Assembly (NCBI GenBank): GCA_963761705.1
Contig: CAVXHK010000001.1
Span: 259,140 to 323,139, forward strand
From: an uncultured Verrucomicrobiae bacterium
Lineage (GTDB): Bacteria > Verrucomicrobiota > Verrucomicrobiia > Chthoniobacterales > JAATET01
Length of the DNA stretch: 64,000 bases
Direction of reading: 5' to 3'
Shown: in pieces, positions 3,783-63,240 of the stretch
Position numbering within the stretch: the first letter of the stretch is position 1
How the letters are laid out: every line of letters begins with the position of its first letter
Notes under the pieces: model-generated
Database searches by the model: none
What the model was told of the DNA's origin: nothing
Seen by the model: the letters and a program-made list of their open reading frames with translations, nothing else
Position numbers and translations under genes: made by a program

Positions 3783-4292
3783 ATGAACAAGCTCCGCATC
3801 ACCCTCCCCGACGGCACGCCGCTCACCCACGACCTCGCCGAAGACCGTGTCAGCGTCGGCCGTCTGCCCGAGAACGACCTCCAGATCGAAGACGACTCCG
3901 TCTCCAGCCTCCACGGCGAGATCACCTACGACGGCACCGCCCACCAACTCACCGACCTCGGCTCGACCAACGGCACCTTCGTCAACGGCTCGCAAGTGAC
4001 GGAGGCAACCCTCTCGCCCGGCGATCAAGTCCGCTTCGGCCAGATCGACTGCGTCTACGAGGGCGAAATAGGCACTCCCGGGTCCGCGCCGATGCCCAAC
4101 TCCGGTCCGGCCACCGTCGCTCTCGGCGAGGGCAGCGCCCGCCCGCCCGGCTTCGTTAGCGCATCCCCTTTCCCGAAGCTTGCCGAGCAGAACGGCCCCA
4201 TCGCCAAAGTCGCCGTCGCCTTCGCGATCCTCGGAGCCCTCGCCTTTGCCGCCGCCGTCTTCATGACGGTCCAAATGCAAGCCCCCGTCTAG
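3783..4292 (+). CDS. FHA domain protein with C-terminal membrane anchor
   Basis: VSVGRLPENDLQIEDDSVSSLHGEI...LTDLGSTNGTFVNG is an FHA core. The C-terminal hydrophobic stretch is IAKVAVAFAILGALAFAAAVF. Start taken at MNKLRITL. Confidence 0.8.
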   Translation: MNKLRITLPDGTPLTHDLAEDRVSVGRLPENDLQIEDDSVSSLHGEITYDGTAHQLTDLGSTNGTFVNGSQVTEATLSPGDQVRFGQIDCVYEGEIGTPGSAPMPNSGPATVALGEGSARPPGFVSASPFPKLAEQNGPIAKVAVAFAILGALAFAAAVFMTVQMQAPV

Positions 4293-4400
4293 GTCCGCCC
4301 CGGGCCGAGGCATTTCGTCCCCGCACTGGCACCACGACGATCAGCAATTTCATCGTCGGGAGGTTGACAGCGCCCGGGATGACGGGAAACTCTTTCATCC

Positions 4401-40732: not shown

Positions 40733-41344
40733 ATGCCGGAAAACATCCACACCGAATTCCACCGCTTCCTCACCCCCGCCGACAAGGAGCGCCTGCTCGG
40801 TCAGCGAGGCGGCGTCTTCTGGATGGTCGGCCTTTCTGGTTCCGGCAAATCCACCATCGCCAACGCCGCCGAGCGCACCCTCCACGACGCCGGGCGCTTC
40901 ACCACCATCCTCGACGGGGACAACCTGCGAAGCGGGTTAAATTCCAACCTCGGCTTCACCGACGACGACCGCCGCGAGAACATCCGGCGCACCGCCGAGG
41001 TCGCCCGGCTCTTCGCCAGCTCGGGCGTCATCACCTTGGTCTCCCTCATCACCCCCCGCGAGGCCTTCCGCGCGATGGCCCGCGAGATCGTCGGCCCCGC
41101 TTACCAAGAGATCTACGTCCGCGCCTCGTTCGAATCCTGCGCCGCCCGCGACCCCAAGGGCCTCTACCAGAAAGCCGCCACCGGAGCCGTCGCCAACTTC
41201 ACGGGCAAAGACAGCAGCTTCGAAGCGCCGGAAAATCCCGACCTCCTGCTCGATACCGAGAGCGACACCGCCGAATCGTGCGCCAAGCGGCTGATCGACT
41301 TTGTCGAGTCGAAGGTGATGGGGTCCAAAGTCGGAAAGTCTTAA
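40733..41344 (+). CDS. cysC: Adenylyl-sulfate (APS) kinase
   Basis: GGVFWMVGLSGSGKSTIANAAERTL...LDGDNLRSGLNSNLGFTDDDRRENIRR...RDPKGLYQKA. The last codons (SKVGKS) are encoded by 8-mer repeat units. Confidence 0.92.
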   Translation: MPENIHTEFHRFLTPADKERLLGQRGGVFWMVGLSGSGKSTIANAAERTLHDAGRFTTILDGDNLRSGLNSNLGFTDDDRRENIRRTAEVARLFASSGVITLVSLITPREAFRAMAREIVGPAYQEIYVRASFESCAARDPKGLYQKAATGAVANFTGKDSSFEAPENPDLLLDTESDTAESCAKRLIDFVESKVMGSKVGKS

Positions 41345-41365
41345 GGTCGGAAAGTCCGGGAACCC

Positions 41366-41413
41366 GCGCCAAAGGCAATCACCTTTTGGCGCCCTTTGCG
41401 CCTCTTTGCGGCC
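41366..41413. repeat. Gene-less hairpin / pyrimidine-rich arm of the same inverted-repeat family
   Basis: GCGCCAAAGG, caatca, then CCTTTTGGCGCCCTTTGCGCCTCTTTGCGGCC. The last 20 nt match the arm at 42805..42824. Confidence 0.6.
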
Positions 41414-41480
41414 AATCCTCACCGCCATTTCGACCTTTGACATTCGTCCTTCCGACTTTCAGACTCACCCGCTTTTTCCG

Positions 41481-42387
41481 ATGCCCGACTACAATCTAAG
41501 CCATCTCGATCAACTCGAGGCCGAGGCCATTTTCATCCTCCGCGAGACCGCCGCGCAGTTCCGCAAGCCGGCCCTCCTCTTTTCCGGCGGCAAGGATTCC
41601 ATCCTCATGGCGCACCTCGCGCACAAGGCGTTCTGGCCGTCGAAACTTCCGTTCCCGCTCGTCCACGTCGACACGGGACACAATTTCGACGAGACGATGA
41701 CTTACCGCGACGCTTACGTTGAAAAGCTCGGCGCCGAGCTCGTCGTCGGCTCCGTCCAACGGTCCATCGACGAGGGCCGCGTCGTCGAAGAGAAGGGCAT
41801 CAACGCCTCTCGCAACAAACTCCAGACCGTCACCCTCCTCGACACCATCGAGGCCAACCAATACGACGCCTGCCTCGGCGGCGGTCGCCGCGACGAAGAA
41901 AAGGCCCGCGCGAAAGAACGCTTCTTTTCCCACCGTGACGAGTTCGGTCAGTGGGATCCGAAGAACCAACGTCCCGAGCTTCTGGAATCTCTTCAACGGG
42001 CGCAAGAGCGAGGGCGAGCACTTCCGCGTCTTCCCGCTGTCGAACTTCACCGAAATGGACGTCTGGCTCTACATCCAGCGCGAGAAGATCGACCTCCCGT
42101 CGCTCTACTTCTCCCACGAGCGCGAAGTCTTCGTTCGCAACGGCACGATGCTGGCCGTCACCGATTTCCTCAAGCCGCAGGACAACGAACTCGTCGAGCG
42201 CAAGGTCGTGCGGTTTCGCACCATCGGCGACGCCACCTGCACGGGCGCGGTCGAATCCCGCGCCTCGACCCTCGACGACATCATCGAAGAAGTTGCCGCC
42301 TCCCGGCAGACCGAACGCGGCACCCGCTCCGACGACAAACGCTCCGAGACCTCGATGGAAGATCGGAAGAGGGAAGGTTATTTTTAG
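41481..42387 (+). pseudogene. cysD: Sulfate adenylyltransferase subunit 2, interrupted by an apparent +1 frameshift
   Basis: Frame A reads MPDYNLSHLDQLEAEAIFILRE...LLFSGGKDS...HRDEFGQWDPKNQRPEL up to 41981. Frame B, from TGG 41983, reads WNLFNGRKSEGEHFRVFPLSNFTEMDVWLYIQ...DRKREGYF, ending at 42387. The two parts total about 301 aa, the normal CysD length. The extra base lies within GAG CTT C TGG (41976..41985). Confidence 0.75.
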
Positions 42388-42826
42388 CCGCAAAGAGGCG
42401 CAAAAGGCTCAAAAAATGACCGATAAGGAGGTGTTCGCTCTTTGTGACAAGGTTCGCGAGACTTCGTTCTCGTTGCATCGCTTTTTACGTTTTGGACATC
42501 TGGAGAAAGTCTACGAGCGGGGAATGAAAAACCGCCTCAAGAAATCCGGTATCCAAGCCGCGTCGCAGTATGCCATCCCAGTCCGTGATGAAGACGGCAC
42601 GCTTTTGGGAGATTTTTTCGCAGACTTATTCGTTGAGGAGATGCTGCTAGTTGAAATCAAGGCAGCCCGCAGTCTCGCAGCCGAGCACACCGCCCAGATC
42701 CTCGGCTACCTCAGAGCCACTGGCATCGAGCATGGTCTCTTGATCAACTTTGGAGCGCCCAAGTTGGAAATAAAGAAATTCGCCCTATCAAAACCCTTTT
42801 GAGCTTTTTGCGCCTCTTTGCGGCTA
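42385..42826 (+). mobile_element. Inverted-repeat-flanked GxxExxY gene cassette inserted between cysD and cysN
   Basis: The left arm 42385..42414 is TAGCCGCAAAGAGGCGCAAAAGGCTCAAAA. The reverse complement of the right arm 42797..42826 is TAGCCGCAAAGAGGCGCAAAAAGCTCAAAA, a 29/30 match counted by hand. The left arm begins with the cysD stop codon. The right arm ends 7 nt before the cysN ATG. Confidence 0.7.
42416..42802 (+). CDS. GxxExxY family protein (PD-(D/E)XK nuclease-like fold)
   Basis: 128 aa with GHLEKVYE (GxxExxY), ADLFVEEMLLVEIK (D...ExK) and C-terminal GLLINFG. Confidence 0.8.
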   Translation: MTDKEVFALCDKVRETSFSLHRFLRFGHLEKVYERGMKNRLKKSGIQAASQYAIPVRDEDGTLLGDFFADLFVEEMLLVEIKAARSLAAEHTAQILGYLRATGIEHGLLINFGAPKLEIKKFALSKPF

Positions 42827-42833
42827 AATAACC

Positions 42834-50315: not shown

Positions 50316-52382
50316 ATGAGCAAACCAACGACCCCGACTCGCAAGAAACAAAAGCTGACGATCGTTCAGCGGGCCGCCGCCTTCTACGGAAAGCTCAGCC
50401 TCTGGAACAAACTCGCCCTCCTGGCCCTCGTCCTGGCCTTGCCGGCGGGTTATGGGGCTTTGTTGCTCCTGAAGCCGGTCTACAAGAACTGGCGCGCGCA
50501 CAATGCTCTCCAAATGGCCGCTTCCGCGATCGAGTCCGGTGACCAAAATGCGGCGTCTCTCGCCTTCCGGACGGCGATTCGCTCGAGACCAAAGGACCCC
50601 CAGGTCTGGCGGAAGGTCGCGCAATTTCTCGACGAACTGAAATCTCCCGAGTCCTTCTCGGTTTGGTCCCGAGTCGTGAAGATGGAACCCGACGACCTCC
50701 CGGCTCGCTTCGCCCTCGTCGACAGTGCCCTCGCGGGCGGGCGCGTCGAACAAGCCTCCGAAGCTCTCGCGGGTGTTCCGGAATCCGCCCGCACCGGGGC
50801 TGATTATCTCCGGGCCGCCGCCGCCATCGCGATCGCTTCGAACCAGCCCACCGAAGCGGAACGCCATCTCGTCGCTCTCGAATCCCTGGAGCCGGAATCG
50901 GATCGCGTTTCCTGGGACTTGGCGCGGGTCCGGTCCGTCAGCACCGACGAGTCGTCCCGAGCCGCCGGACTCGCGGCGGTGGAAGCCATCGCGACCGGGG
51001 AAAACCCCTTCGTCGCCGACGCCCAGCGGCACTTAGTCCGCCTCGCTCTGTCCCGTCAGGATTTCTACACCGCGAATCGATGGGCGGAGAAGCTCGTCGC
51101 GCGACCCGACGCGACCGCTGAAGATCAGATCCTTTTTTTGGACACCGAGTTCGCCTCGCAGAGTTTCACCCTCCCAGGCACGATCTCGGAAACGTTCGAG
51201 CACGCGCGAGATCGCCCCGAAGACGCACCCCTGATCATCGCTTACCTGACAGCGCGGGGATTGGCCGACCGGGTCGCCACCTGGTTCGAGCAACTCCCAC
51301 CGGACGTCCGCTCCGACCAGTCGATGCAACTGGCGTCGTTCGATTTTGCCCTGCAAACCGGCGATTGGAGCCTCGTTTTCGAGATTCTACGCGGCGAGCA
51401 CGCGCCGCACACGTTGAGTCCCGAGTTCGTGGACGCGACGGAGACAGGGTTGGCTGATCATCGCCGGGGCGACCCGGAAGCGATCGCCGCGTGGCAGGAG
51501 GCCATCCGCTCGTCCGGCGGGGATCCGGCCTCCACTTACCTTCTCGCCTCGATGGCGAAGGCGGCGTCGTGGCCCCAGGCAAACCGGGCGGCTCTCTGGC
51601 GACTCACCGAATTGGTGGGACAAAATCCCAAGATCTGGCTCGAGGTCCTGAAGCTCGAGCTGCAAGCCAAAGACTCCGTCGGCATCCTGCGGGCTTTGTC
51701 GGGAGCCGTCCGGGCTGACCCCGACGATCGACAGGTTCGCAACGACTGGATTCTCCTCAATCTTCTCCTGGATCAAGGTAACCCGGATGATTTGCTGAAA
51801 CTCGCCGCGGACAACGCCTCGTTCGCCCCCGACAATTTCTTCTACACCTCGACCCACGCAATGGCGCTTTCGACCGTCGGACGTCACGCCGAAGCCGTCG
51901 CCGCCATCGAACTCATCGACCCAGCCGACCAAAATCGACCCGAGCGGGCCCTCTACGTCGGCACCGTTCTCGTCGCCGCGGGGGAGTTCGAGCGGGCCCA
52001 GCGGTACCTCGATCTGGCGGAATCGGCCCGCGGGAGCTTTCTCCCGGAGGAAGAGGCCATGCTGTCGCGCGGTCAGGCCGTCGCCTCCGGCGCGGCCTCC
52101 GTCAGCGACGAGGTTGCCCGCCTGACCACTCGCCGGGAGATGACCGAGTCGGAGGCCGCCGAGTTCGCCGCGACCCTGCAAGCCCAACGCCGCGCCGGCG
52201 AGGGTTTGGACTCGGAAGAAATTGCCCAATCGCTGCGGGAAGCAGCGGACCGCGGCCAGCGTTCCCCCGAGGAAATCGAGCAAATTCTCCAGGGCATCCG
52301 CGGGGAATCGGCACCGGGTGCGTCCACCCCCGAATCAGCTTCGTCCGAAGCATCCGCGAACGGAGGGGAGACCTCCCGTTAG
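50316..52382 (+). CDS. TPR-repeat protein with N-terminal membrane anchor
   Basis: 688 aa. TM segment LALLALVLALPAGYGALLLL followed by repeated Ala/Leu-rich helical-pair periodicity. Confidence 0.6.
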   Translation: MSKPTTPTRKKQKLTIVQRAAAFYGKLSLWNKLALLALVLALPAGYGALLLLKPVYKNWRAHNALQMAASAIESGDQNAASLAFRTAIRSRPKDPQVWRKVAQFLDELKSPESFSVWSRVVKMEPDDLPARFALVDSALAGGRVEQASEALAGVPESARTGADYLRAAAAIAIASNQPTEAERHLVALESLEPESDRVSWDLARVRSVSTDESSRAAGLAAVEAIATGENPFVADAQRHLVRLALSRQDFYTANRWAEKLVARPDATAEDQILFLDTEFASQSFTLPGTISETFEHARDRPEDAPLIIAYLTARGLADRVATWFEQLPPDVRSDQSMQLASFDFALQTGDWSLVFEILRGEHAPHTLSPEFVDATETGLADHRRGDPEAIAAWQEAIRSSGGDPASTYLLASMAKAASWPQANRAALWRLTELVGQNPKIWLEVLKLELQAKDSVGILRALSGAVRADPDDRQVRNDWILLNLLLDQGNPDDLLKLAADNASFAPDNFFYTSTHAMALSTVGRHAEAVAAIELIDPADQNRPERALYVGTVLVAAGEFERAQRYLDLAESARGSFLPEEEAMLSRGQAVASGAASVSDEVARLTTRREMTESEAAEFAATLQAQRRAGEGLDSEEIAQSLREAADRGQRSPEEIEQILQGIRGESAPGASTPESASSEASANGGETSR

Positions 52383-52575
52383 ACCAATCCGACCGATTCA
52401 TTTTTTCTTGAACGATTTGAATCCGCCAGTCTACTGGTAGTCGGGTGGAGCGTTTCGGCGTCACGAATCTGTGTTCAATGCGAGGTGCCGGCTCCCGTCA
52501 CCACGGGCGGCAGCATCGCAACAAGGGGCCCCGTGAGGGGTGGGGGAGTCCGCGGTGAGTTCGGTGACCGTAGAA

Positions 52576-53085
52576 ATGTCCGGACAGTCCGCCGAAGCGC
52601 CAACGGACCGGATTCAGGAATTTCAGCTCGAATGCATCGAGCTATTCGCTCACGCTGCCCGCGCCCTGGCCTTGCCGAAGTCGGTCGGGCAGATCTACGG
52701 GTTGCTCTTTTCCAGCCAAACCGACTTGAGCCTCGACGAAGTGGCGCTCAAACTCAAAATCAGCCGGGGCTCGGCGAGTCAGGGCCTGCGCTGGCTCCGC
52801 GACATCGGGGCCGCGCGGCTGAGCTTCGTGCCCGGAGACCGGCGGGACCGCTTCACCGCCGAAACCGAGCTTCGCCGGCTGGCCACGGGATTTCTCCGGG
52901 AGACCGCCGAACCTCACCTCCGCAACGGCGAGGACCACCTGGCGCGATTGCAAGAATCGTGGAAGGAAATGGCCCCAAGCGAGGAACGTGAATTCTCCAA
53001 GAACCGCATCTCGAAGCTGCGCCGCTGGCACAAATTCGCCAACCAGACCCTCCCGCTCATCCTCAAGGTCGCGGGGAAATTCTAA
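52576..53085 (+). CDS. GbsR/MarR-like winged-helix transcriptional regulator
   Basis: LPKSVGQIYGLLFSSQTDLSLDEVALKLKISRGSASQGLRWLRDIGA looks like a wHTH. The start is ambiguous between GTG 52540 and ATG 52576. Confidence 0.55.
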   Translation: MSGQSAEAPTDRIQEFQLECIELFAHAARALALPKSVGQIYGLLFSSQTDLSLDEVALKLKISRGSASQGLRWLRDIGAARLSFVPGDRRDRFTAETELRRLATGFLRETAEPHLRNGEDHLARLQESWKEMAPSEEREFSKNRISKLRRWHKFANQTLPLILKVAGKF

Positions 53086-53179
53086 ATTGCTCGGAAGGTC
53101 CCTGGTCAAAAAGTTATTTGAGAATCGTTGGAGCGATTGATTTCGAACCGTCGATCCTCCTCCGCCGACCTTTGACGTC

Positions 53180-53315
53180 CCGACCTTCCGACCTTCCGAC
53201 CTTCCGACCTTCAGACCTTCAGACCTTCAGACCTTCAGACCTTCAGACCTTCAGACCTTCAGACCTTCAGACCTTCCGACCTTCCGACCTTCAGACCTTC
53301 CGACCTTCCGACCTT
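53180..53315. repeat. 17 tandem copies of the 8-bp unit C[C/A]GACCTT, ending 2 nt before the gmd ATG
   Basis: Counted by hand: 4x CCGACCTT, 8x CAGACCTT, 2x CCG, 1x CAG, 2x CCG. The array occupies exactly 53180..53315. Confidence 0.9.
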
Positions 53316-53317
53316 TT

Positions 53318-54370
53318 ATGAAAACAGCAATGATCACCGGGATCACCGGTCAAGACGGGTCCTACCTCGCCGAGCAACTTCTCGCGAAGGGATACGAAGT
53401 CCACGGCATGATCCGCCGCTCCAGCAGCTTCAACACCGAGCGGATCGACCACCTCTACCGCGACCCGGAGATTCTCGACAAAAAGCTCTTCCTCCACCAC
53501 GGCGACCTCACCGATTCGTCCAACCTCAACCGTCTGCTCGAGAAGATCGGCCCGGACGAGATCTACAACCTCGGTGCGCAGAGCCACGTGAAGGTTTCGT
53601 TCGAAGTCCCGGAGTACACCGCCGAAGTCGACGGGATCGGCACCCTTCGCTTCCTCGACGCCATCAAAGAGGTCGGTCTCAAGGACAAGGTCCGGTTTTA
53701 CCAGGCCTCGACCAGCGAGCTCTACGGCCTCGTCCAGGAGGTCCCGCAGACCGAGAAGACCCCGTTTTATCCCCGCTCGCCCTACGGCGTCGCCAAGCTC
53801 TACGGCTATTGGATCATCGTCAACTACCGCGAGTCCTACGGGATCCACGCGTCGAACGGCATCCTCTTCAATCACGAATCTCCCCGTCGCGGTGAGACGT
53901 TCGTCACCCGCAAGATCACCCGCGCCGCCGGTCGCATCAAGGAAGGTCTCGAAGATTGCCTGTTCATGGGCAACATCGACTCCCAGCGCGACTGGGGCTA
54001 CGCGCCCGAATACACGGACGCCATGTGGCACATCCTCCAGCAAGACGAACCCGGCGATTACGTCGCCGCCACGAACGAGATGCACTCCGTTCGGGAGTTC
54101 ATCGACGAGACGTTCAAGCACCTCGGCATGGAACTCGAGTTCCGGGGCGAAGGCGTCAACGAGACCGGCGTCGAGAAATCAACCGGTCGGACGCTCTTCC
54201 GCATCGACCCCAGCTACTTCCGCCCCGCCGAAGTCGAACTCCTCATCGGGGACGCCACCAAAGCCAAGGAAACCTTCGGCTGGGAACCGAAAACGAAATT
54301 CGCCGAACTGGTCAAGATCATGGCCGACGCCGACTGGAAGCTCGCGCAGAAAGAGCGAAGGAATAAGTGA
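53318..54370 (+). CDS. gmd: GDP-mannose 4,6-dehydratase
   Basis: [47 protein letters not shown]...YGVAKLY...[10 protein letters not shown]. Confidence 0.95.
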
Positions 54371-54558
54371 GTCGCAAGGTCCAAGGTCGAAGCGTCAGGT
54401 CAGAATCGCTGGTGCGATTGAAGCTGGGGAGCGCACGCGTCCCCGCGTGTGAGATGCGGCGTCCCGCCGCATCGCAGCAAGCACTTTGGTAGGGCAGGCC
54501 GTCCGCGCCCACCGCCATCCCTACGGCCCATCAAAAAAATCGCACCAGCGATTCAATC

Positions 54559-54667
54559 CCGACCACTCCGACCACTCCGACCACTCCGACCACTCCGACC
54601 ACTCCGACCACTCCGACCTTCCGACCTTCCGACCTTCCGACCTTCCGACCTTCCGACCTTCCGACCC
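54559..54667. repeat. Tandem array of 6x CCGACCACT (9 bp), then 6x CCGACCTT (8 bp) plus a partial unit, ending 11 nt before the exosortase ATG
   Basis: Counted by hand: 9-mers span 54559..54612, 8-mers span 54613..54660, and a partial CCGACCC follows. Confidence 0.9.
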
Positions 54668-54678
54668 GAGAACATCCC

Positions 54679-55599
54679 ATGCAACCCCCCGAAACCATGA
54701 CCCAACCAAAGAACCGCGCCCACACCGTCGCGTTTCCGGAGTGGGCACCCTTCGCGATCATCACGTTAATCTGGCTGCCGGCGCTGATGCGATTCAGCGT
54801 CGAGTGGTCGATCAATCCGCAGTATTACTACGGTTGGTCGGTTCCGCTGCTTTCGGCCTACCTGATCTACGATCGATGGTTGGCGCGGCCGACACCGGTC
54901 CCGCCCGAGCGGATACTGGTGCCGGCGATATTGATTATCCTGTGCGCCTTGCCGCAGTTGCCCCTGCGTCTGGTCGGCGAGGCGAACACGGATTGGCGGT
55001 TCGTTTCCTGGATCATGGGGCTGAACGCGTTGGCGATCGGCCTCGCGATCCTCTACATCCAAGGCGGTTGGCGGTGGCTGGGCTTCTTCGCTCTCCCAGT
55101 TCTTTTTCTGCTCACCGCCATCCCGTGGCCGTCCGGTGCCGAGAAGCTGCTGGTTCAGGGCCTGATGCGCGTCAACGCCGAGATCGCCGCCAACCTCGTC
55201 GGAATCGTCGGCATCCCGGCGGTCGCTCAGGGCAACGTGATCGAGGTGCCCACCGGGGTGTTGGGCGTCAACGAGGCCTGCAGCGGCATCCGGTCTCTTC
55301 AATCCACCCTCATGGCCGCCGCCTTCTTGGGATTGCTTTACCGACGGTCTTTGATCGGCCTCGGCTGCCTGATTTTCCTCGGTTCCCTCATCGCGTTCGT
55401 CTGCAACGTCATCCGCACAACGTTCCTCACCTACCAGGGAGCCACGAACGGCATCGAAGCCGTCGACAAGTGGCACGACTCAGCCGGATTCTTCATTCTC
55501 GGCGTCGTGCTCGTGTGTCTGTGGGGGATGAGCCAGTGGCTCGAGCGCTCGGAAAGGAAAGGATCTGAACGAAAGAGTGCTGAGGAAGCAAAGGTCTGA
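54679..55599 (+). CDS. Exosortase (Xrt family transpeptidase)
   Basis: Polytopic membrane protein with YYYGW near the N-terminus, the catalytic-Cys region VNEACSGIRSL, a later NVIRT, and His in DKWHDSAGF. Confidence 0.85.
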   Translation: MQPPETMTQPKNRAHTVAFPEWAPFAIITLIWLPALMRFSVEWSINPQYYYGWSVPLLSAYLIYDRWLARPTPVPPERILVPAILIILCALPQLPLRLVGEANTDWRFVSWIMGLNALAIGLAILYIQGGWRWLGFFALPVLFLLTAIPWPSGAEKLLVQGLMRVNAEIAANLVGIVGIPAVAQGNVIEVPTGVLGVNEACSGIRSLQSTLMAAAFLGLLYRRSLIGLGCLIFLGSLIAFVCNVIRTTFLTYQGATNGIEAVDKWHDSAGFFILGVVLVCLWGMSQWLERSERKGSERKSAEEAKV

Positions 55600-55712
55600 A
55601 GATGCATTGAAACCCACCCGGTGTGGCTGGAGTCTGGCTCGACCTGAATAGGATTCGTGTCATCCGGCGGACCGAAAGGGGGTGGCTTTCAATCCAATCG
55701 AAGCTAAATTGC

Positions 55713-56042
55713 ATGACAATGCTGCAACAACGCGACGAGCAGCGAAGGCAAACGCGCCTCGAGCTTTTCGACGAGACCCGGCGAACGCTTTTTGCCGAGC
55801 TTCGTGCCCGGCTCCCCCGCGGGACGGTGGTATGGATCTTTGGCTCGTTGGCTCGACGAGGAGTCTTCAACGCAGCTTCCGACGTCGACATCGCTCTGGA
55901 ATGTGAGCCAGCGGGGTCGAGTTGTTTTCGCCTGAGTTCCGAGTTGGACGAAGCTGTTGGCCGCCCCGTCGATGTGGTGCTGCTGAATGAAAGTCGGCTG
56001 GCCGCTCAGATCCAAAGCGCGGGAGAAAAATGGACGCTATAG
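55713..56042 (+). CDS. Nucleotidyltransferase (MNT-type antitoxin)
   Basis: VWIFGSLARRGVFNAASDVDIAL matches the GS-x-RG...DxD minimal nucleotidyltransferase motif. It overlaps the next gene by 13 nt. Confidence 0.75.
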   Translation: MTMLQQRDEQRRQTRLELFDETRRTLFAELRARLPRGTVVWIFGSLARRGVFNAASDVDIALECEPAGSSCFRLSSELDEAVGRPVDVVLLNESRLAAQIQSAGEKWTL

Positions 56043-56512
56043 GCTTGGCCACGCTGCATCGGGAAATGCAGGAGGATGTGCGCGTGATGCACGACGCGTT
56101 CGATCTTGCGACGGAGCGTTTTTCCCACGCTGGAGCGATGGGCTTGGAGTCGACGGCGCATCATTTATGCCGGTTCTACAACGCGTGCGAACAAATGGCT
56201 TTGCGAGTGGCGAAGGCATTCGAAAATCATATCGATGACGACCGAGGATGGCACACCGCTCTCCTCACGCGGATGAGCCTGGAGATCGGAGGGATTCGCC
56301 CGGCCCTGATCCCGTTGGATCTCAAACCCGATCTCCAAGAGTTGAAAGGGTTTCGACACGTTTTCGTTCATGCTTACGAGTTGCGGTTGGACGAAGAAAA
56401 GCTGCGATTGCTTATCCAATACGCCGGCCGGGTGAATGCGCGGTTGGATGAAATGATCAAAGTCTTCGCGGATCGTGCTTTCGAAGACGCAGATCCGGAT
56501 TCTACATCGTAG
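56030..56512 (+). CDS. HEPN-type (HepT-like) putative ribonuclease toxin
   Basis: Helical 160-aa protein with an R-x4-H motif in GFRHVFVHAY. Paired with the upstream MNT gene. Confidence 0.6.
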   Translation: MDAIGLATLHREMQEDVRVMHDAFDLATERFSHAGAMGLESTAHHLCRFYNACEQMALRVAKAFENHIDDDRGWHTALLTRMSLEIGGIRPALIPLDLKPDLQELKGFRHVFVHAYELRLDEEKLRLLIQYAGRVNARLDEMIKVFADRAFEDADPDSTS

Positions 56513-56674
56513 AAGTCGAGTGAACGGGTAGCTGGTAATACTAACGAGCAACCAGCAACTCACATCCGGGAAGCTCGCAGAGCTCCTCCCCAGCGCGGAT
56601 GAAATCATGAATTCCGCGATGTTCCTCGGGACAAACATCGCGACGATCAAGAGCGTCGTGAGGAGCTTTTGATT

Positions 56675-57413
56675 CTCGCGCAGAGGCGCAGAGGCGCAGA
56701 GATTGATACAAATGGCGATGGGTTTCACGCAAAGAGCGCTAAACCTACAGATCAGCTGTTTCCAAAAACAAAAACTCAATAACTATCACCTGTATCTCAG
56801 CCCTCAGCGCCTCCGCGCCTCTGCGGGAGAAAAGCATTCAATACAGGAACTCGCGCAACCGAAGGCTCGGGGGAGCCGAAGGTAGACGAAAAGCCCGAAG
56901 GGTGACCGAGCTGGGTTGCGAGGGAATCAAAGACGCAGAGGCGCAGAGATTGATACAAATGGCGATGGGTTTCACGCAAAGAGCGCTAAACCTACAGATC
57001 CGCTAATTCCAATAACTAGTAACTGTATCTCAGCCCTCCGCGTCTCTGCGCCTCTGCGGGCTAAAAGTATCAATACAGGGACTCGCGCAGAGACGCAGAG
57101 GCGCAGAGATTGATACAAATGCGGATCAGGAAGAGCTGAGAGAGAAGAACGGATGAAAGCCAAAAAAGCTAAATCTTAAAAAGAATCCCCTCCGCGTCTC
57201 TGCGCCTCTGCGGGCTAAAAGTATCAATACAGGGACTCGCGCAGAGGCGCAGAGATTCATACAAATGCGGATGAGAAAAGGCTGAAAGAGAAGAACAGGG
57301 GAAATTAAAGGAAGCTGAATCTTCTAAAGAATCCCCTCCGCGTCTCAGCGCCTCTGCGCGATTCATCGTATTATGCAACCAGAGGGTGAGGTTCGCGCGG
57401 AGGCGCGGGAAGA
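56675..57413. repeat. Mosaic palindromic-repeat zone 1 (hairpins plus B/C/D modules)
   Basis: An R arm lies at 56675..56701. Hairpins lie at 56801..56948 (with a D insert), 57034..57108 and 57187..57254, plus a degenerate one ending at 57413. Confidence 0.85.
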
Positions 57414-57469
57414 GTGTTAGTTGTTGGCTGGACGGTGGACATGACGAAACTACATGATATGTTTTTCGG

Positions 57470-57721
57470 ATGAGTGAATCGACATTGACCGAACGGGGAC
57501 AGGTATCCATCCCGGCGAAAATACGTAAATCCATGGGGTTGAAAGCTGGGCAACGGCTGCAATGGGAGCAGGTGTCCGCTCTGGAGTGCCGTATCTCCGC
57601 AATCGAGCCGCACGGTGACGGTCCACTTTCTGTATTGGGGTATGCCGCAAGGATTCGGGAGAATTCCGGACGTTCGACCGACGATTGGATGAAAGAGTTG
57701 CGAGCGGGCGAGATGCAATAG
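57470..57721 (+). CDS. AbrB/MazE/SpoVT-type antitoxin
   Basis: LTERGQVSIPAKIRKSMGLKAGQRLQWE is a swapped-hairpin DNA-binding motif. A PIN gene starts 4 nt downstream. Confidence 0.75.
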   Translation: MSESTLTERGQVSIPAKIRKSMGLKAGQRLQWEQVSALECRISAIEPHGDGPLSVLGYAARIRENSGRSTDDWMKELRAGEMQ

Positions 57722-57724
57722 CCC

Positions 57725-58147
57725 ATGTGGATTGTTGACACCTGCATTGTCCTCGATGTGTTCGAGGATGATCCCGAGTTTGGGAGAAAATCGGCGAACC
57801 TGCTTGAAAAACTATGTGGCGAAGGACTCTGCATCTGCCCCGTAACCATGGTCGAGCTGTCTCCAGCCTTTCAAGGCGATCTCTCGGAGCAGAAAAAATT
57901 CCTCTCGCTTGCCCGCATCTCGTTTTCCGCGAATTGGTCAGTTTTGGATACCGAAACGGCCCATCAGGCGTGGAGTGATTATGTCCACCTCCGCCGTCGC
58001 GAGGTCACACCAAGACGCCCGATCGCGGACATCCTGATCGGGGCATTCGCGTCAAATCGAAAAGGTTTGGTGACTCGGAACGCCAAAGACTTTCGACCTT
58101 GGTATCCCAAACTTGCCATCCAGGAGTCCGGCGCATCCTCCGGGTAG
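57725..58147 (+). CDS. PIN-domain toxin (VapC-like)
   Basis: MWIVDTCIVLDVF (first acidic residue), VTMVELS, IADILIGAFA, LVTRNAKDF. Confidence 0.8.
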   Translation: MWIVDTCIVLDVFEDDPEFGRKSANLLEKLCGEGLCICPVTMVELSPAFQGDLSEQKKFLSLARISFSANWSVLDTETAHQAWSDYVHLRRREVTPRRPIADILIGAFASNRKGLVTRNAKDFRPWYPKLAIQESGASSG

Positions 58148-58769
58148 CTAATAACCAGTAACCAATAACTGTATCTCAGCCCTCCGCGTCTCCGCGCCTC
58201 TGCGGGCTAAAAGTATCGATACAGGAACTCGCGCAGAGGCGCAGAGACGCAGAGATCGATACAAATGCGGATGATGAAGAGCTGAAAAGAAGAACGGATG
58301 ATATCCAAAGAAGCTAGATCTTAAAAAGAATCCCCTCCGCGCCTCTGCGCCTCTGCGGGCTAAAAGTATCAATACAGGAACTCGCGCAGAGGCGCAGAGA
58401 TTGATACAAATGCGGATGATGAAGAGTTGAAAAGAAGAACGGATGAAAATCAAAGAAGCTAAATCTTAAAAAGAATCCCCTCCGCGTCTCTGCGCCTCTG
58501 CGGGCTAAAAGTATCAATACAGGAACTCGCGCAACCGAAGGCTCGGGGGAGCCGAAGATAGACGAAAAGCCCGAAGGGTGACCGAGCTGGGTTGCGAGGG
58601 AATCAAAGACGCAGAGGCGCAGAGATTGATACAAATGAGGATGAGAAGGAGCTGAAACAGAAGAACGGATGAAATCCAAGGAAGCTAAATCTTAAAAAGA
58701 ATCCCCTCTGCGCCTCTGCGCCTCTGCGGGAGAAAAGTATCAATACAGGAACTCGCGCAGAGGCGCGAG
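58148..58769. repeat. Mosaic palindromic-repeat zone 2
   Basis: Includes the hairpin at 58332..58399, about four hairpin units in total, and D copy 58530..58596. Ends with a truncated R arm. Confidence 0.85.
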
Positions 58770-58832
58770 TCATTCCGAATCACGCAACTGATCCAAGTTG
58801 ACCGGGTTAAATGATCGCGTTACGATATCAAA

Positions 58833-59048
58833 ATGAAATCAATTCTCATCCGAAACGTCTCGCCCGAGACCGTTCAGCGGCTGAAGGCCAACGCCCGCGC
58901 TAATCATCGCTCGTTGCAAGGCGAGCTTCACGCATTGATTGAAGCGGGGATCGGCGTTCCCGACTCGTCGGAGCCCGAGTTCGAGCTGCGAACGGTGCGA
59001 ACCGATGGAACGCAGCGTTGGACCCGGGAAGAAATGTATGCGGATTGA
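58833..59048 (+). CDS. Ribbon-helix-helix (Arc/FitA-like) antitoxin
   Basis: MKSILIRNVSPETVQRLKANARANHRSLQGELHALIEAG is the typical RHH plasmid-stability N-terminus. It overlaps the downstream PIN gene by 11 nt. Confidence 0.7.
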   Translation: MKSILIRNVSPETVQRLKANARANHRSLQGELHALIEAGIGVPDSSEPEFELRTVRTDGTQRWTREEMYAD

Positions 59049-59511
59049 GCCGGGATCTCGGGTGAGTCTCGACACCAATGTCCTGCTAGACGCAACTGAC
59101 GAGGGTCGCGCTCGACACGGCGTTGCCATGCGACTCTTGGTCGAATCCCAGAGCCGTGGAATCGGCCTCTTCGTCGCAGCGCAAGTGATCCGCGAATATC
59201 TCGTAGTCGCCACCCGACCTCTTACGGCGAACGGTCTCGATCTTTCCATTGACGATGCGCTTTTCAACGTCCGGCAGTTGACGCGCCAAACCACCCTCCT
59301 CTGGGAGACCGTCGGGGCCTCCCAACTCTTTCTCGACTGGGCCCGGGAGCTTGGCGTTACGGGCACGAAACTTCACGACCTCCAGATCCTTGCCACGACT
59401 CACAGCGCTGGCATCCCGTGCCTCGTGACCTCGAACATCGACGATTTTCCGTCCAGAGTCGGCCCGCTCGTCTTCCCTCTCGGCGAATTGGACTGGGGGA
59501 ATGGGGACTAA
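59038..59511 (+). CDS. PIN-domain toxin (VapC-like)
   Basis: VSLDTNVLLDATDEG, AAQVIREYLVVATR, HDLQILATTHSAGIPCLVTSNIDDF. Start taken at MRIEPG. Confidence 0.75.
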   Translation: MRIEPGSRVSLDTNVLLDATDEGRARHGVAMRLLVESQSRGIGLFVAAQVIREYLVVATRPLTANGLDLSIDDALFNVRQLTRQTTLLWETVGASQLFLDWARELGVTGTKLHDLQILATTHSAGIPCLVTSNIDDFPSRVGPLVFPLGELDWGNGD

Positions 59512-59629
59512 GGATCCATTAGGTTCAGTCGGGTCAGGGCCCGTGCCCGTCTCCCGCCTCGAGGACAGGTTTCAACAATTACCCCGACGAGTCCTTGGCC
59601 CGTCAGTTCGATCCTGCCGTTTTCTAATT

Positions 59630-60263
59630 CCTCTCTGCGTCTCAACGCCTCTGCGGGAAAAAAGTATCGATACAGGAACTCGCGCAACCGAAGGCTCGGG
59701 GGAGCCGAAGATAGACGAAAAGCCCGAAGGGTGACCGAGCTGGGTTGCGAGGGAATCAAAGGCGCAGAGGCGCAGAGAATGAAGATGCTGGTGGGTTTCA
59801 CCCAAAGAGCGCTAAACCTACAGATCAGCTAATTCCAATAACTATCAACTGTATCTCAGGCCTCCGCGCCTCCGCGCCTCCGCGGGCTAAAAGTATCAAT
59901 ACAGGGACTCGCGCTGAGACGCAGAGGCGCAGAGAATGAAGATGGCTATGGGTTTCACGCGGTTCCTGCACGAAGAGCTACTGATTAGATATTTCCAACA
60001 ACAAAAACTCAATAACTATCAACTGTATCTCAGCCCTCCGCGTCTCTGCGCCTCCGCGGGAGAAAAGTATCGATACAGGGACTCGCGCAGAGGCGCAGAG
60101 GCGCAGAGAATGAAGATGGCGATGGGTTTCACGCAAAGAGCGCTAAATTTACAGATCAGCTAATTCCAATAATTAGTAACTGTATCTCAGCCCTCCGCGC
60201 CTCTGCGCCTCTGCGGGAGAAAAGTATCAGTATCAATCCAGGAACTCGCGCAGAGACGCAGAG
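59630..60263. repeat. Mosaic palindromic-repeat zone 3
   Basis: Four hairpin units, three C modules, and D copy 59683..59749. Confidence 0.85.
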
Positions 60264-60285
60264 AGTGGTGAAGGGTCCTTGAAAA

Positions 60286-60669
60286 ATGACGGAGAATGAG
60301 ATCGGAACGAAGGTTCTGGAGGTATCGATTGAAATCCACAGGGAGCTGGGTCCCGGGCTGCTTGAAACGGTTTACGAAGTGGTTCTGGCAAAGGAACTGT
60401 CTTTACGTGGCCTGATTGTGCAGCGCCAGGTGCCGGTGCCAATCCTGTGTCGCGGAACTCGGTTTGATGAAGGTTTTCGCGCTGATCTGATTATTAACCG
60501 GACCGTCCTTCTGGAACTCAAATCTGTCGAAAAGGTAATCCCTGCCCACAAGAAGCAAGTGCAGACCTACCTGCGACTCACTGGTATCAAGCTGGGTTAT
60601 CTTTTGAACTTTGGTGAGTCTGTTCTGAAAAGTGGGATCACTCGCTGCGTCAATGGCCTCGAATCATGA
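60286..60669 (+). CDS. GxxExxY family protein (PD-(D/E)XK nuclease-like fold)
   Basis: GLLETVYE, RADLIINRTVLLELK, GYLLNFG. An R arm ends 22 nt upstream and an L arm starts 3 nt after the stop. Confidence 0.8.
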   Translation: MTENEIGTKVLEVSIEIHRELGPGLLETVYEVVLAKELSLRGLIVQRQVPVPILCRGTRFDEGFRADLIINRTVLLELKSVEKVIPAHKKQVQTYLRLTGIKLGYLLNFGESVLKSGITRCVNGLES

Positions 60670-60672
60670 ATT

Positions 60673-61115
60673 CCCTCCGCGCCTCTGCGCCTCTGCGGGC
60701 TAAAAGTATCAATCCAGGAACTCGCGCAGAGGCGCAGAGATTGAAGATGCGATGGGTTTCAAGCGGCCCTCGAGCGAAGAGCGGCAGGTCTACAGATCAA
60801 CTGCTCCCAATACCCAATAACTATCACCTGGATCTCAGCCCTCAGCGCCTCCGCGCCTCTGCGGGCTAAAAGCATTCAATACAGAAACTCGCGCAACCGA
60901 AGGCTCGGGGGAGCCGAAGATAGACGAAAAGCCCGAAGGGTGACCGAGCTGGGTTGCGAGGGAATCAAAGACGCAGAGACGCAGAGATTCATACAAATGC
61001 GGATGAGAAAAGGCTGAAAGAGAAGAACAGGGGAAATTAAAGGAAGCTGAATTTTGTAAAGAATCCCCTCAGCGTCTCAGCGCCTCTGCGGGAGAAAAGT
61101 ATCAATACAGGGACT
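60673..61115. repeat. Mosaic palindromic-repeat zone 4
   Basis: Hairpin at 60673..60739, a C module, a hairpin with D copy 60892..60958, a B module, and a final L arm plus linker. Confidence 0.85.
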
Positions 61116-61160
61116 CGTTTAAGAATCGCGCAAGGTAGAGTCTTGCGCTAACATCCAGCA

Positions 61161-61478
61161 ATGACAACGATAGATATAGCCGCGAAGATCGCCCACCGAC
61201 TGATTGGCGGGCTGCCGGCTGAGCAAGTCTGGCTGTTTGGCTCGCAAGCCAGGGGCGATGCCTCGCCTGATAGTGATTTGGATATTCTCGCGGTCGTTGG
61301 CGAAGCAAAGCCGTCCCGGATACGGCAGACCGTTGAGGCCTATTCCCTCGTGGCAGACATCCATGCTCCCAAAGACATCATCATTCTGACTCGCGACCAG
61401 TGGACGCGACAGAAAGGCGTCGTAAACACGATTCCCTACCTTGCTCTCAAAGAGGGCATCCCGCTCCACGAGGGGTGA
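61161..61478 (+). CDS. Nucleotidyltransferase (MNT-type antitoxin)
   Basis: VWLFGSQARGDASPDSDLDILAV is the GSxxRG...DxD motif. Confidence 0.8.
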   Translation: MTTIDIAAKIAHRLIGGLPAEQVWLFGSQARGDASPDSDLDILAVVGEAKPSRIRQTVEAYSLVADIHAPKDIIILTRDQWTRQKGVVNTIPYLALKEGIPLHEG

Positions 61479-61484
61479 CTCAGG

Positions 61485-61913
61485 ATGACCCAAGAATACT
61501 TGCAAGTGGTTGAAGCTTGGTTGGCGAAGGCCGGGTCGGATCTTGCATCAGCCAAATTGTTGATCGAAAACGACGATCCGCATCTCGATACCGGCAGTTA
61601 CCATTGCCAGCAAGCCGCAGAAAAGGTCCTCAAAGGCTGGCTGACTGCTAACAAAGTCGAATTTCGCAAAACCCACGACATCTCTGAGCTTCTCGGCCAA
61701 TGCATTCAAATCGAGGTCAGCTTCCGAGCGTTCGAAGATGCCGGACGTTTCCTCCTGCCATTCGCCACCCAATTCCGCTATCCCGGAGACGTCTTCGAAC
61801 CGTCGCGGGATGAGGCTTTGGAAGCGTTCGAGTCAGCAGCCTCGATTGACTCCTTCGCTCCCGCTCATCTCGCCCTGCGGGCTACGCCGCAGAGCCGCCG
61901 TAGTCTGCCCTGA
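61485..61913 (+). CDS. HEPN domain protein (toxin partner of MNT)
   Basis: AWLAKAGSDLASAKLL...YHCQQAAEKVLKGWL...FRKTHDISELL...QFRYPG is a classical HEPN layout. It starts 6 nt after the MNT gene. Confidence 0.78.
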   Translation: MTQEYLQVVEAWLAKAGSDLASAKLLIENDDPHLDTGSYHCQQAAEKVLKGWLTANKVEFRKTHDISELLGQCIQIEVSFRAFEDAGRFLLPFATQFRYPGDVFEPSRDEALEAFESAASIDSFAPAHLALRATPQSRRSLP

Positions 61914-62035
61914 GGCGTCCCACGCCTCCGGTGCTCTCGACGCGGTTTGGTTTGACTTGAATGCGAAATTTCCGGGCCAGCTTGAATAAGGAAGCCCTTT
62001 GGACCCGCCTCGAATTTTAGACAGCTGACCGTTGC

Positions 62036-63081
62036 CCTCCGAGCCTCTGCGGGAAAAACACATCAATACAGGAACTTGCGCAACCGAAGGCTCGGGGGAG
62101 CCGAAGATAGACGAAAAGCCCGAAGGGTGACCGAGCTGGGTTGCTAGGGAATCAAAGGCGCAGAGACGCAGAGAATGATATAAATGCGGATGAGGAAGAG
62201 CTGAAAAGAAAGAACGGATAAGATCCAAGGAATCTAATCTTCAAAAGGATTCCCTCCGCGCCTCCGCACCTCTGCGGGCTAAAAGTATCGATACAGGAAC
62301 TCGCGCAGAGGCGCAGAGGCGCAGAGATTGATACAAATGCGGATCAGGAAGAGCTGAGAGAGAAGAACGGATGAAAGCCAAAGAAGCCAAATCTTCAAAA
62401 AAATCCCCTCCGCGCCTCTGCGCCTCTGCGGGCTAAAAGTATCAATACAGGGACTCGCGCAGAGGCGCAGAGGCGCAGAGATTGATACAAATGCGGATCA
62501 GGAAGAGCTGAGAGAGAAGAACGGATGAAAGCCAAAGAAGCCAAATCTTCAAAAAAATCCCCTCCGCGCCTCTGCGCCTCCGCGGGATAAAGTATCAATA
62601 CAGGAACTCGCGCAGAGACGCAGAGGCGCAGGAAGCTCGAGAAGGGAATTCGTAATACCAATACAGGGACTCGCGCAACCGAAGGCTCGGGGGAGCCGAA
62701 GATAGACGAAAAGCCCGAAGGGTGACCGAGCTGGGTTGCGAGGGAATCAAAGGCGCAGAGGCGCAGAGAATGAAGATGGCGGCGGATTCATCACGCAAAG
62801 AGCGCTAAACCTACAGATTAGCTGCTTCTAATAACTAATAACAAATAACTATCAACTGTATCTCATTCCCTCCGCGCCTCTGCGCCTCTGCGGGATAAAG
62901 TATCAATACAGGAACTCGCGCAACCGAAGGCTCGGGGAAGCCGAAGATAGACGAAAAGCCCGAAGGGTGACCGAGCTGGGTTGCGAGGGAATCAAAGGCG
63001 CAAAGGCGCAGAGAAGGAAAACCCGCTACCCAGTACCCGTATCTCATCGCCATTCCCTCTGCGCCTCCGCGCCTCTGCGGG
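62036..63081. repeat. Mosaic palindromic-repeat zone 5 (longest)
   Basis: About seven hairpin units and three D copies (62079..62145, 62674..62740, 62919..62985). Ends with a lone L arm at 63055..63081. Confidence 0.85.
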
Positions 63082-63240
63082 ATAATCACTCAGAACCTCA
63101 GAACGCACCTCCCCTCCCATGAAAAAAACAGTAATCATCGTTGCCTCCCGCTCGCCCGAGCGTGTCGCCCTACGGGCTGTCGCTCCACTCCAGGCTACCC
63201 CGACCGTCCCCATCGGTCCGGTGTTCTCTTCCACAAAAGC

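Follow-up and report, generated by a model that had tools for sequence, protein, structure and literature searches.

An octamer array abutting gmd in an uncultured Verrucomicrobiae bacterium as a candidate slippage-expanded arm of a dispersed palindromic intergenic element

The 64-kb stretch of DNA analyzed here (hereafter designated the window), from an uncultured Verrucomicrobiae bacterium, contains gmd, the gene for GDP-mannose 4,6-dehydratase, whose start codon is abutted by a tandem array of 8-bp units (array 1); a putative regulator gene precedes it, and an exosortase gene with an array of its own (array 2) follows (Table 1). By direct reading and pattern matching, positions 53180–53315 hold 17 perfect head-to-tail 8-mers, C[C/A]GACCTT, in 136 bp, and the block order given in an earlier note on this DNA (4 CCG, 8 CAG, 2 CCG, 1 CAG, and 2 CCG units) is correct. 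Tandem Repeats Finder (TRF) assigned to the array a period of 8, 16.8 copies, 96% matches, and a score of 219, and a two-unit probe with up to two mismatches found 23 matches in the window versus 0.13 expected, a number reached in none of 100 shuffles. The degenerate pair at the 5′ edge, also readable from 53167 as GACCTTT and GACGTCCC, extends the tract to 19 units when both are counted. The array ends at 53315 and is followed by TT and then by the ATG at 53318, in agreement with the claimed distance of 2 nt, and, because there is no earlier in-frame gmd start after the previous stop, it lies outside the coding sequence. Also as claimed, a hairpin, AATCG-TTGGAG-CGATT, is present upstream (53123–53138), and no purine-rich Shine-Dalgarno (SD) sequence precedes gmd. 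The latter is, however, ordinary in the window, where only 3 of the 24 ATG-start genes have an SD-like 4-mer at −20 to −1, so that an array abutting the start codon need not disrupt initiation. The 136 nt are composed of 43% C and 12.5% G. Rfam gave nothing at E ≤ 1 across 52000–56000. A sigma-70-type scan of 52400–54800, beyond whose reach non-sigma-70 promoters lie, found no sigma-70-like hexamer pair, and a promoter inside the array was rejected on that basis; the stretch GACCTT...TCAGA was also considered for its resemblance to −35/−10 elements of the extracytoplasmic function (ECF) type.

Table 1 Features of the gmd region and of the related elements in the window (L numbers denote other loci, described in the text)
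Feature	Position	Strand	Remarks
Element 3 A arm	41327..41356	+	overlaps the end of cysC (APS kinase), whose last residues and stop codon it encodes
Element 3 S arm	41432..41464	+	ends in CAGACTCA, ~20 nt before cysD-like ATG 41481
Putative small winged-helix regulator	52540..53085	+	ATG 52576 is a possible start; no Pfam match
Vestigial purine-rich A arm (CGGAAGGTC CCTGGTC)	53092..53107	+	7 nt after regulator stop TAA 53083–53085
Palindrome AATCGTTGGAGCGATT	53123..53138	.	one-mismatch copy of AATCGC-N4-GCGATT; same palindrome precedes arrays in L004, L018, L065
Degenerate units, array 1 5′ edge	53165..53179	+	CCGACCTT TGACGTC; TRF period-24 row starts at 53165
Array 1 (S arm)	53180..53315	+	17 perfect C[C/A]GACCTT
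Array 1, block 1	53180, 53188, 53196, 53204		CCGACCTT at each position
Array 1, block 2	53212–53275		CAGACCTT x8
Array 1, block 3	53276–53291		CCGACCTT x2
Array 1, block 4	53292		CAGACCTT x1
Array 1, block 5	53300–53315		CCGACCTT x2
gmd, GDP-mannose 4,6-dehydratase	53318..54370	+	Pfam PF16363, E = 3.8e-152, aligned from residue 5
Element 2 A arm (GTCGCAAGGTCCAAGGTCGAAGCGTCAGGTCAG)	54371..54403	+	starts right after gmd stop codon
Palindrome AATCGCTGGTGCGATT	54404..54419	.	reverse complement of the copy at 54538
Element 2 centre	54420..54537	+	118 nt, non-coding, two internal GC-rich hairpins; ~45 nt longer than in L004
Palindrome AATCGCACCAGCGATT	54538..54553	.	on the minus strand a T run follows, scores terminator-like
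Array 2 (element 2 S arm)	54559..54667	+	6 x CCGACCACT and ~7 x CCGACCTT; ends 11 nt before exosortase ATG 54679
Exosortase (EpsH/XrtA-like)	54679..55599	+	preceded by array 2

Array 1 does not stand alone: the window holds two further structures of its kind, which the earlier note had missed together with the reverse-complement units past the upstream stop codons. All three share a layout: a purine-rich arm, (AAGGTCNG)n, stands at the upstream stop codon (A arm) and a pyrimidine-rich arm, (CMGACCTT)n, before the next start (S arm). In all three, the A-arm cores are AAGGTC or AAAGTC and the S-arm cores GACCTT or GACTTT, the A-type cluster preceding the S-type cluster at 41327/41432, 53065/53167, and 54376/54615. 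Two of the three have the palindrome AATCGC-N4-GCGATT between their arms: a single copy, differing at one position, precedes gmd, and the gmd–exosortase spacer holds two copies that are reverse complements of each other. Immediately past the gmd stop codon (TGA, 54368–54370) comes GTCGCAAGGTCCAAGGTCG, which belongs to the A arm of element 2, and the element between cysC and cysD (41327–41464) is a degenerate arm pair. At the position of the vestigial A arm before gmd, fuller A arms occur in two orthologous loci (L004 and L202). In comparison with shuffled sequences, long nested hairpins are predicted for the complete elements, with z-scores of −3.3 for the cysC–cysD spacer of the window and of −6.1 (window), −7.6 (L204, a further orthologous locus), and −6.9 (L004) for the gmd–exosortase spacer. 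By contrast, the regulator–gmd spacer folds no better, or worse, than its shuffles (z = +0.29 in the window, +2.34 in L004, and +1.16 in L204), because its A arm is down to ~2 units as against 17–19 S units.

With moderate confidence, we favor the explanation that array 1 is the slippage-expanded, pyrimidine-rich 3′ arm of a dispersed palindromic intergenic element resembling repetitive extragenic palindromes (REPs) and miniature inverted-repeat transposable elements (MITEs), and that it acts as an unstructured leader with a quantitative effect. Most likely, it is a genuine octamer minisatellite arisen by replication slippage, and no device specific to gmd. In such an element, a purine arm, (AAGGTCKG)n, stands at, or within ~10 nt of, the upstream stop codon; in the Verrucomicrobial copies seen here AATCGC-N4-GCGATT often comes next, with or without a central insert; and a pyrimidine arm, (CMGACCTT)n, is placed in front of the next gene. 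In the regulator–gmd copy, the 5′ arm has decayed to ~2 units and the 3′ arm has grown to 17–19, leaving array 1 without a pairing partner. In a read-through transcript, which probably covers the genes for a TPR protein, the regulator, Gmd, and the exosortase, the array would then form a C/U-rich, G-poor, SD-less, unstructured leader reaching up to the gmd start. Number and type of the units drift by slippage, and any effect on gmd would presumably be exerted through the leader length, an open initiation region, or exposed C-rich RNA. Anatomy, family, distribution, turnover, and predicted non-folding are read from the sequences; the leader transcript and any influence on expression are inferred.

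The history of the array was followed in orthologous loci. A Gmd search revealed a clade of ~12 proteins at 93–96% identity, mostly from long-read soil metagenome-assembled genomes (MAGs) of Verrucomicrobiae/Chthoniobacterales; nine retrieved loci were compared together with L004, which came from a DNA scan, and the identities given below for single loci are those of gmd DNA with the window. The gene order TPR protein, regulator, gmd is kept at all retrieved orthologous loci. Array 1 consists of 17 clean and 2 degenerate units in the window (array 2, 13 units), of 17 units including 5 x TAGACCTT (TAG) in L004 (90% identity; array 2, 3 units), and of 14 units, mostly with GACTTT cores and including 4 x CCGACTTT, in L204 (87%; array 2, ~10 units). 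In L202 (87%), the A arm and a degenerate palindrome are retained and the S arm is lost, and the array-2 site is occupied by a different inverted-array element of GCGCAAAAAG-type units. L201, L203, L205, L206/L207, L208, and L209 (82–84.5%) have neither array, the contig of L208 ending ~175 nt past gmd; the leaders of the array-free loci appear by eye G-poor and C/A/T-rich, without an SD motif. The limitation of array 1 to the window, L004, and L204, plus the vestige in L202, indicates that it was gained in one subclade, and its absence from six more distant orthologous loci indicates that gmd does not need it. Runs of identical units are particular to each lineage, the window having eight CAG units in a row, L004 five TAG units, and L204 four CCGACTTT units, and the tract measures 19 units/152 nt in the window, 17/136 nt in L004, and 14/110 nt in L204. 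The equality of 17 units in the window and L004, considered as a sign of length constraint, lost weight once the degenerate units were counted (19 versus 17, with 14 in L204). Array 1 has thus outlasted the divergence of species, its units being homogenized and exchanged along the way, as slippage would lead one to expect.

The earlier note had proposed slipped-strand phase variation. Slippage itself is borne out on the evolutionary scale by the lineage-specific unit runs and the size differences between species, whereas classic phase variation remains unproven: the tract lies outside conserved open reading frames (ORFs), is accompanied by no sigma-70-like pair, and belongs to a family with housekeeping neighbors. 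A switch operating through frame shift or promoter spacing is thus unlikely. A graded version, in which gain or loss of 8-bp units would change the expression of gmd (and of the exosortase gene) heritably and reversibly and so diversify the surface polysaccharide, would account for tracts as long and pure as these (96% matches) and for the lineage-own unit runs and unit numbers that differ between species (19/17/14 in array 1 and 13/3/~10 in array 2), both arrays standing directly before genes of the exosortase/exopolysaccharide (EPS) locus. We nevertheless consider it unlikely, as no promoter-like hexamers are found in or around the array, family members flank housekeeping genes in either orientation, and the same operon layout occurs without the array at six related orthologous loci. 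The sole available pair of assemblies with the same protein (L206/L207) comes from a species that has no array, and exact-protein look-ups for the Gmd, the regulator, and the exosortase of the window, as well as for the 100%-identical P0001, gave no match, so that the unit numbers compared are those of different species. Translational coupling through an ORF at 53118–53321 (67 aa), which spans the array without a stop and terminates in an ATGA overlapping the gmd start, and under which unit number would matter modulo 3, was also rejected: the ORF has a TTG start and is not conserved in L004, where the five TAG units close every one of the three frames and are followed by no start codon.

Of the related genomes, the six with the loci L201–L206 come from one long-read soil assembly (ENA ERZ25039505) with 79.5–86.4% mutual gmd DNA identity, and the L004 contig may share a sample with them (MAG names MFD03250). 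They differ in intergenic repeat content at the same operon and form a natural comparative set for element turnover. Directly past the gmd stop codon, L202 carries at 4042–4320 GCAAAAAGTC-type units, a nested palindrome CCTGTAGCCAC...GTGGCTACAGG, and then (CTTTTTGCGC)n; either unit families replace one another at this site, or the units turn over in place.

The wider family was surveyed by scanning one genome per species (596 Gb) for three consecutive C[A/C]GACCTT units. At least 120 loci match, whereas fewer than one is expected by chance according to our own arithmetic, and the context statistics in this paragraph and the next are drawn from the 120 array loci listed. The matches listed belong mostly to Verrucomicrobiota (Akkermansiaceae, Luteolibacter, Haloferula, Prosthecobacter), Bacteroidota, and Gemmatimonadota, with a few from Phycisphaerae, Calditrichota, Patescibacteria, and other groups, and several single MAGs contribute 5–9 loci each. 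A phage feature was ruled out, with only 3 matches among 2.9 million viral contigs. The same loci contain ~100 other arrays of 6–10-bp units of diverse sequence, so that these genomes are generally minisatellite-rich. Relative to the pyrimidine array, purine-type cores are found on the upstream side 68 times and on the downstream side 11 times, and 20 arrays have two or more of them upstream versus 2 downstream. Moreover, in the sense of the neighboring gene, 25 of 44 purine arms start no more than 15 nt past the stop codon (median distance, 11 nt), compared with 3 of 38 pyrimidine arms (median, 115 nt). Many of the ORFs preceding post-stop purine arms are 600–1600 aa long, and at the junction the TGA is often followed by GTC(G/T)GAAGGTC. 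This stop junction has its reverse complement in ...GACCTTC(C/A)GACTC(A), the terminal sequence of a Verrucomicrobial subfamily, and inverted termini TGAGTC...GACTCA occur in 14 of 117 arrays, mostly Verrucomicrobial ones. The module of palindrome, CAAWC, and array recurs at the unrelated loci L018 and L065 (another MAG). An intrinsic terminator role was not adopted, since the array ends are generally without T-runs, only the minus-strand palindrome at 54538 having one. No description of these GACCTT/AAGGTC arrays was found in open-access papers, in which the exact repeat strings gave none.

The arrays show no preferred orientation relative to the flanking genes; convergent contexts outnumber divergent ones by 16 to 4, and upstream of gene starts purine-rich arrays are found 32 times and pyrimidine-rich ones 26 times. 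The genes 3′ of sense-oriented arrays include rpsT, cysC, ugd, corA, and those of an SNF2 helicase, a response regulator, an aminotransferase, and a 23S-rRNA-IVS (intervening sequence) protein; rpsT, cysC, ugd, and others start at a distance of 5–19 nt from the array. These data bear on the further suggestion of an unstructured C/U-rich leader, which is plausible at gmd, being compatible with the predicted non-folding in three species, but cannot be the general purpose of a family whose distribution is orientation-neutral. That the leader was selected, the C/U-rich repeat keeping gmd, which has no SD motif, open to initiation or recruiting ribosomal protein S1, would agree with predicted folding worse than that of shuffles in three species, with the rarity of SD-like motifs in the window, with the G-poor leaders kept by array-free relatives, and with the closeness of arrays to rpsT, cysC, ugd, and other starts. 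It appears distinctly unlikely, however, given that purine-rich arrays precede starts about as often, that ~20–30 nt would suffice for an open initiation region and the rest of the 136 nt would be left over, and that six related loci do without the array.

The same composition raises the possibility of a Rho-entry (rut) attenuator, in which the unpaired, untranslated, C-rich, G-poor RNA of 136 nt would load Rho, the number of exposed units would set the attenuation strength, and gmd transcription would depend on the speed of ribosome initiation at the adjacent ATG. A rut site takes at least ~80 nt of C-rich, G-poor, unstructured, and untranslated RNA; the array, with 43% C and 12.5% G over 136 nt, is longer than that, is predicted to be unstructured in three species, and is crossed by no conserved ORF; avoidance of exposed C-rich RNA might also explain why the inverted pairs are nearly always purine-arm-first. 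Because the family has no orientation bias to flanking genes, rut function cannot be its general role, and array-free relatives also have G-poor leaders. This mechanism, proposed from composition and predicted folding, seems to us quite improbable.

The product of the putative regulator gene, for which the array might serve as a multimeric binding platform according to the earlier note, scores 41 bits against NCBIfam models of the GbsR/CudC type, far under the curated cut-off of 218. The window's copy shares 59% identity with that in L004 (7232–7708), compared with 96% for Gmd and 85% for the exosortase of the same pair, and it therefore evolves much faster than these two. An operator function, with the octamers or AATCGC-N4-GCGATT bound by the putative winged-helix protein to control gmd and the exosortase gene, would be in keeping with the position of the regulator gene immediately upstream in the same orientation and with the palindrome copies, one ahead of gmd and two ahead of the exosortase gene. 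Tandem operator arrays of 7–8-bp units are known for other repressors, such as the met boxes of MetJ and the heptads of omega; winged-helix dimers, however, usually bind dyad sites, to which direct 8-bp repeats fit poorly. In the 8 kb covered at each locus, a regulator homolog is found at only 2 of the 120 listed array loci, and none of 80 metagenome loci with regulator homologs (≤50% identity) carries a downstream array. The palindrome-plus-array module occurs at unrelated loci as well, and orthologous regulator–gmd pairs without the array exist. The platform, being unsupported, was dropped, and a role of array 1 as the operator of its neighbor is unlikely, indeed highly improbable.

Several points weigh against the explanation of array 1 as an expanded arm serving as a leader. 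That the array is transcribed as the leader of gmd is an assumption. No target-site duplication (TSD), no empty site with exact boundaries, and no partner transposase was identified, the orthologous spacers with and without the element being too diverged to align and no transposase search having been made; the term MITE-like therefore refers only to arm inversion, dispersed copies, and presence or absence at orthologous sites. The gene-context statistics rest on crude gene prediction, in which the longest ORF was chosen greedily and at least one ORF (L075) is spurious. Furthermore, three species have kept the arrays before gmd as well as before the exosortase gene, and in all three the leader is less foldable than its shuffles; both findings could reflect selection and not mere tolerance. 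Finally, the explanation does not account for the recurrence of one octamer across phyla.

Among known systems, the element comes closest in its working to an extragenic palindrome of the REP/BIME (bacterial interspersed mosaic element) type, found in Enterobacteria and Pseudomonas, or to a MITE with foldback-style arms. Like the REPs, the present elements are short, multi-copy, intergenic, in their complete copies predicted to form stem-loops, and concentrated past the 3′ ends of genes and inside operons. Three elements lie within 64 kb and 5–9 loci in some MAGs, and the stem-loop capacity is predicted for the complete elements (z = −3.3 to −7.6) but not for the regulator–gmd copy (z = +0.29 to +2.34). 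Unlike the REPs, whose super-families are surveyed in PMC3733652, they have arms made of tandem 8-bp arrays that expand asymmetrically to more than 130 bp, and the octamer unit is common to several phyla. As for the 3′-end preference, 25 of 44 purine arms start within 15 nt past a stop codon by crude gene calls, and 16 convergent contexts stand against 4 divergent ones. Liang, Rudd, and Deutscher reportedly found in 2015 that many Escherichia coli REPs lie within 15 nt of the stop codon. In the stretches that were read, neither the arms nor the AATCGC palindrome showed a GTAG or CGTC head, for which no systematic search was made, and no RAYT transposase was seen, none having been searched for.

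MITEs such as the Correia elements of Neisseria, and the eukaryotic foldback elements, whose terminal inverted repeats are built of short tandem subrepeats, are further comparators. Shared with them are inverted arms around a variable center, dispersed copies, presence or absence at orthologous sites, the defined inverted termini TGAGTC...GACTCA of the Verrucomicrobial subfamily, and a location next to genes whose expression could be altered. The present elements differ in that no TSD or autonomous partner was identified (no transposase search being made), that the arms change by slippage, and that the association with stop codons is tighter than random intergenic insertion predicts. The 7-bp promoter-region repeats of Haemophilus influenzae hmw1A/hmw2A and the AGAT repeats in the 5′-UTR (untranslated region) of Moraxella catarrhalis uspA2 are contingency loci outside ORFs. 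Array 1 resembles them, in position only, as a long, pure, non-triplet repeat of lineage-dependent unit number before the start of a surface-related gene; a frame-dependent placement, a spacing-dependent one as far as the sigma-70-type scan reaches, and a restriction to surface genes are absent. Unlike those repeats, it occurs in a free-living soil Verrucomicrobium and not in a host-adapted pathogen, its unit differences are known between species, and its repeat flanks housekeeping genes both ways and forms one arm of a palindromic element. In the hairpin cassettes of the 23S rRNA IVS type, long stems enclose an ORF of PF05635 or PDDEXK_3. The gmd–exosortase element likewise combines a stem with cargo, its center of 118 nt being non-coding, and a PDDEXK_3 gene of the window stands between inverted arms that are purine-first and pyrimidine-last. 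In contrast, the IVS-type cassettes sit in rRNA and are excised by RNase III, while the gmd array is without a partner arm.

The repeat touching the gmd start codon looks like a switch and is better explained as the unbalanced arm of a common intergenic palindrome; the case thus warns against taking tracts of this kind too readily for devices of phase variation. More intriguing than array 1 itself are the rules of its family: one 8-bp unit in several phyla, the purine arm nearly always first, and the purine arm at the stop codon. Should they hold in complete genomes, they would point to an unstudied class of post-stop-codon RNA/DNA elements in little-studied phyla, several of which reportedly use SD motifs little, and the gmd and exosortase arrays would offer natural test cases for arm imbalance versus downstream expression. 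In a bolder form, the GACCTT/AAGGTC arrays would constitute an undescribed cross-phylum class of REP-like elements in Verrucomicrobiota, Bacteroidota, Gemmatimonadota, and others, with a fixed grammar, in which the purine arm begins at the stop codon and the pyrimidine arm closes the element, and with a tunable arm balance. Balanced arms would then form a stable stem protecting or processing the upstream cistron, an over-expanded pyrimidine arm would expose a C-rich, G-poor strand as an adjustable leader for Rho entry or translation initiation, and the expression of a downstream polysaccharide gene would be heritably tunable. This generalization is tentative and, in our judgment, rather improbable.

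Inverted tandem arms are also found around genes elsewhere in the window. The PDDEXK_3 (GxxExxY-type) gene at 42416–42802 is enclosed by GCCGCAAAGAGGCGCAAAAGG ... CCTTTTGCGCCTCTTTGCGGC (42386–42833), and the orthologous intergenic site of this cassette holds a GACCTT array instead in the relatives L003 and L084, that of L003 lying 14 nt before a gene for a 23S-rRNA-IVS protein (PF05635). The region 56500–63200, with a lower GC content (0.53–0.57 versus ~0.64), is dense in repeats of 146–154 bp, whose arms are the triple octamers (GCGCAGAG)3 and (CCTCTGCG)3 and which interleave with small toxin-antitoxin-type and nuclease genes (MNT/HepT, MazE/PIN, PIN, PDDEXK_3, and HEPN). The region has the look of a series of gene cassettes bounded by hairpins, and repeats akin to this set are present in L004 at 80–95% identity.

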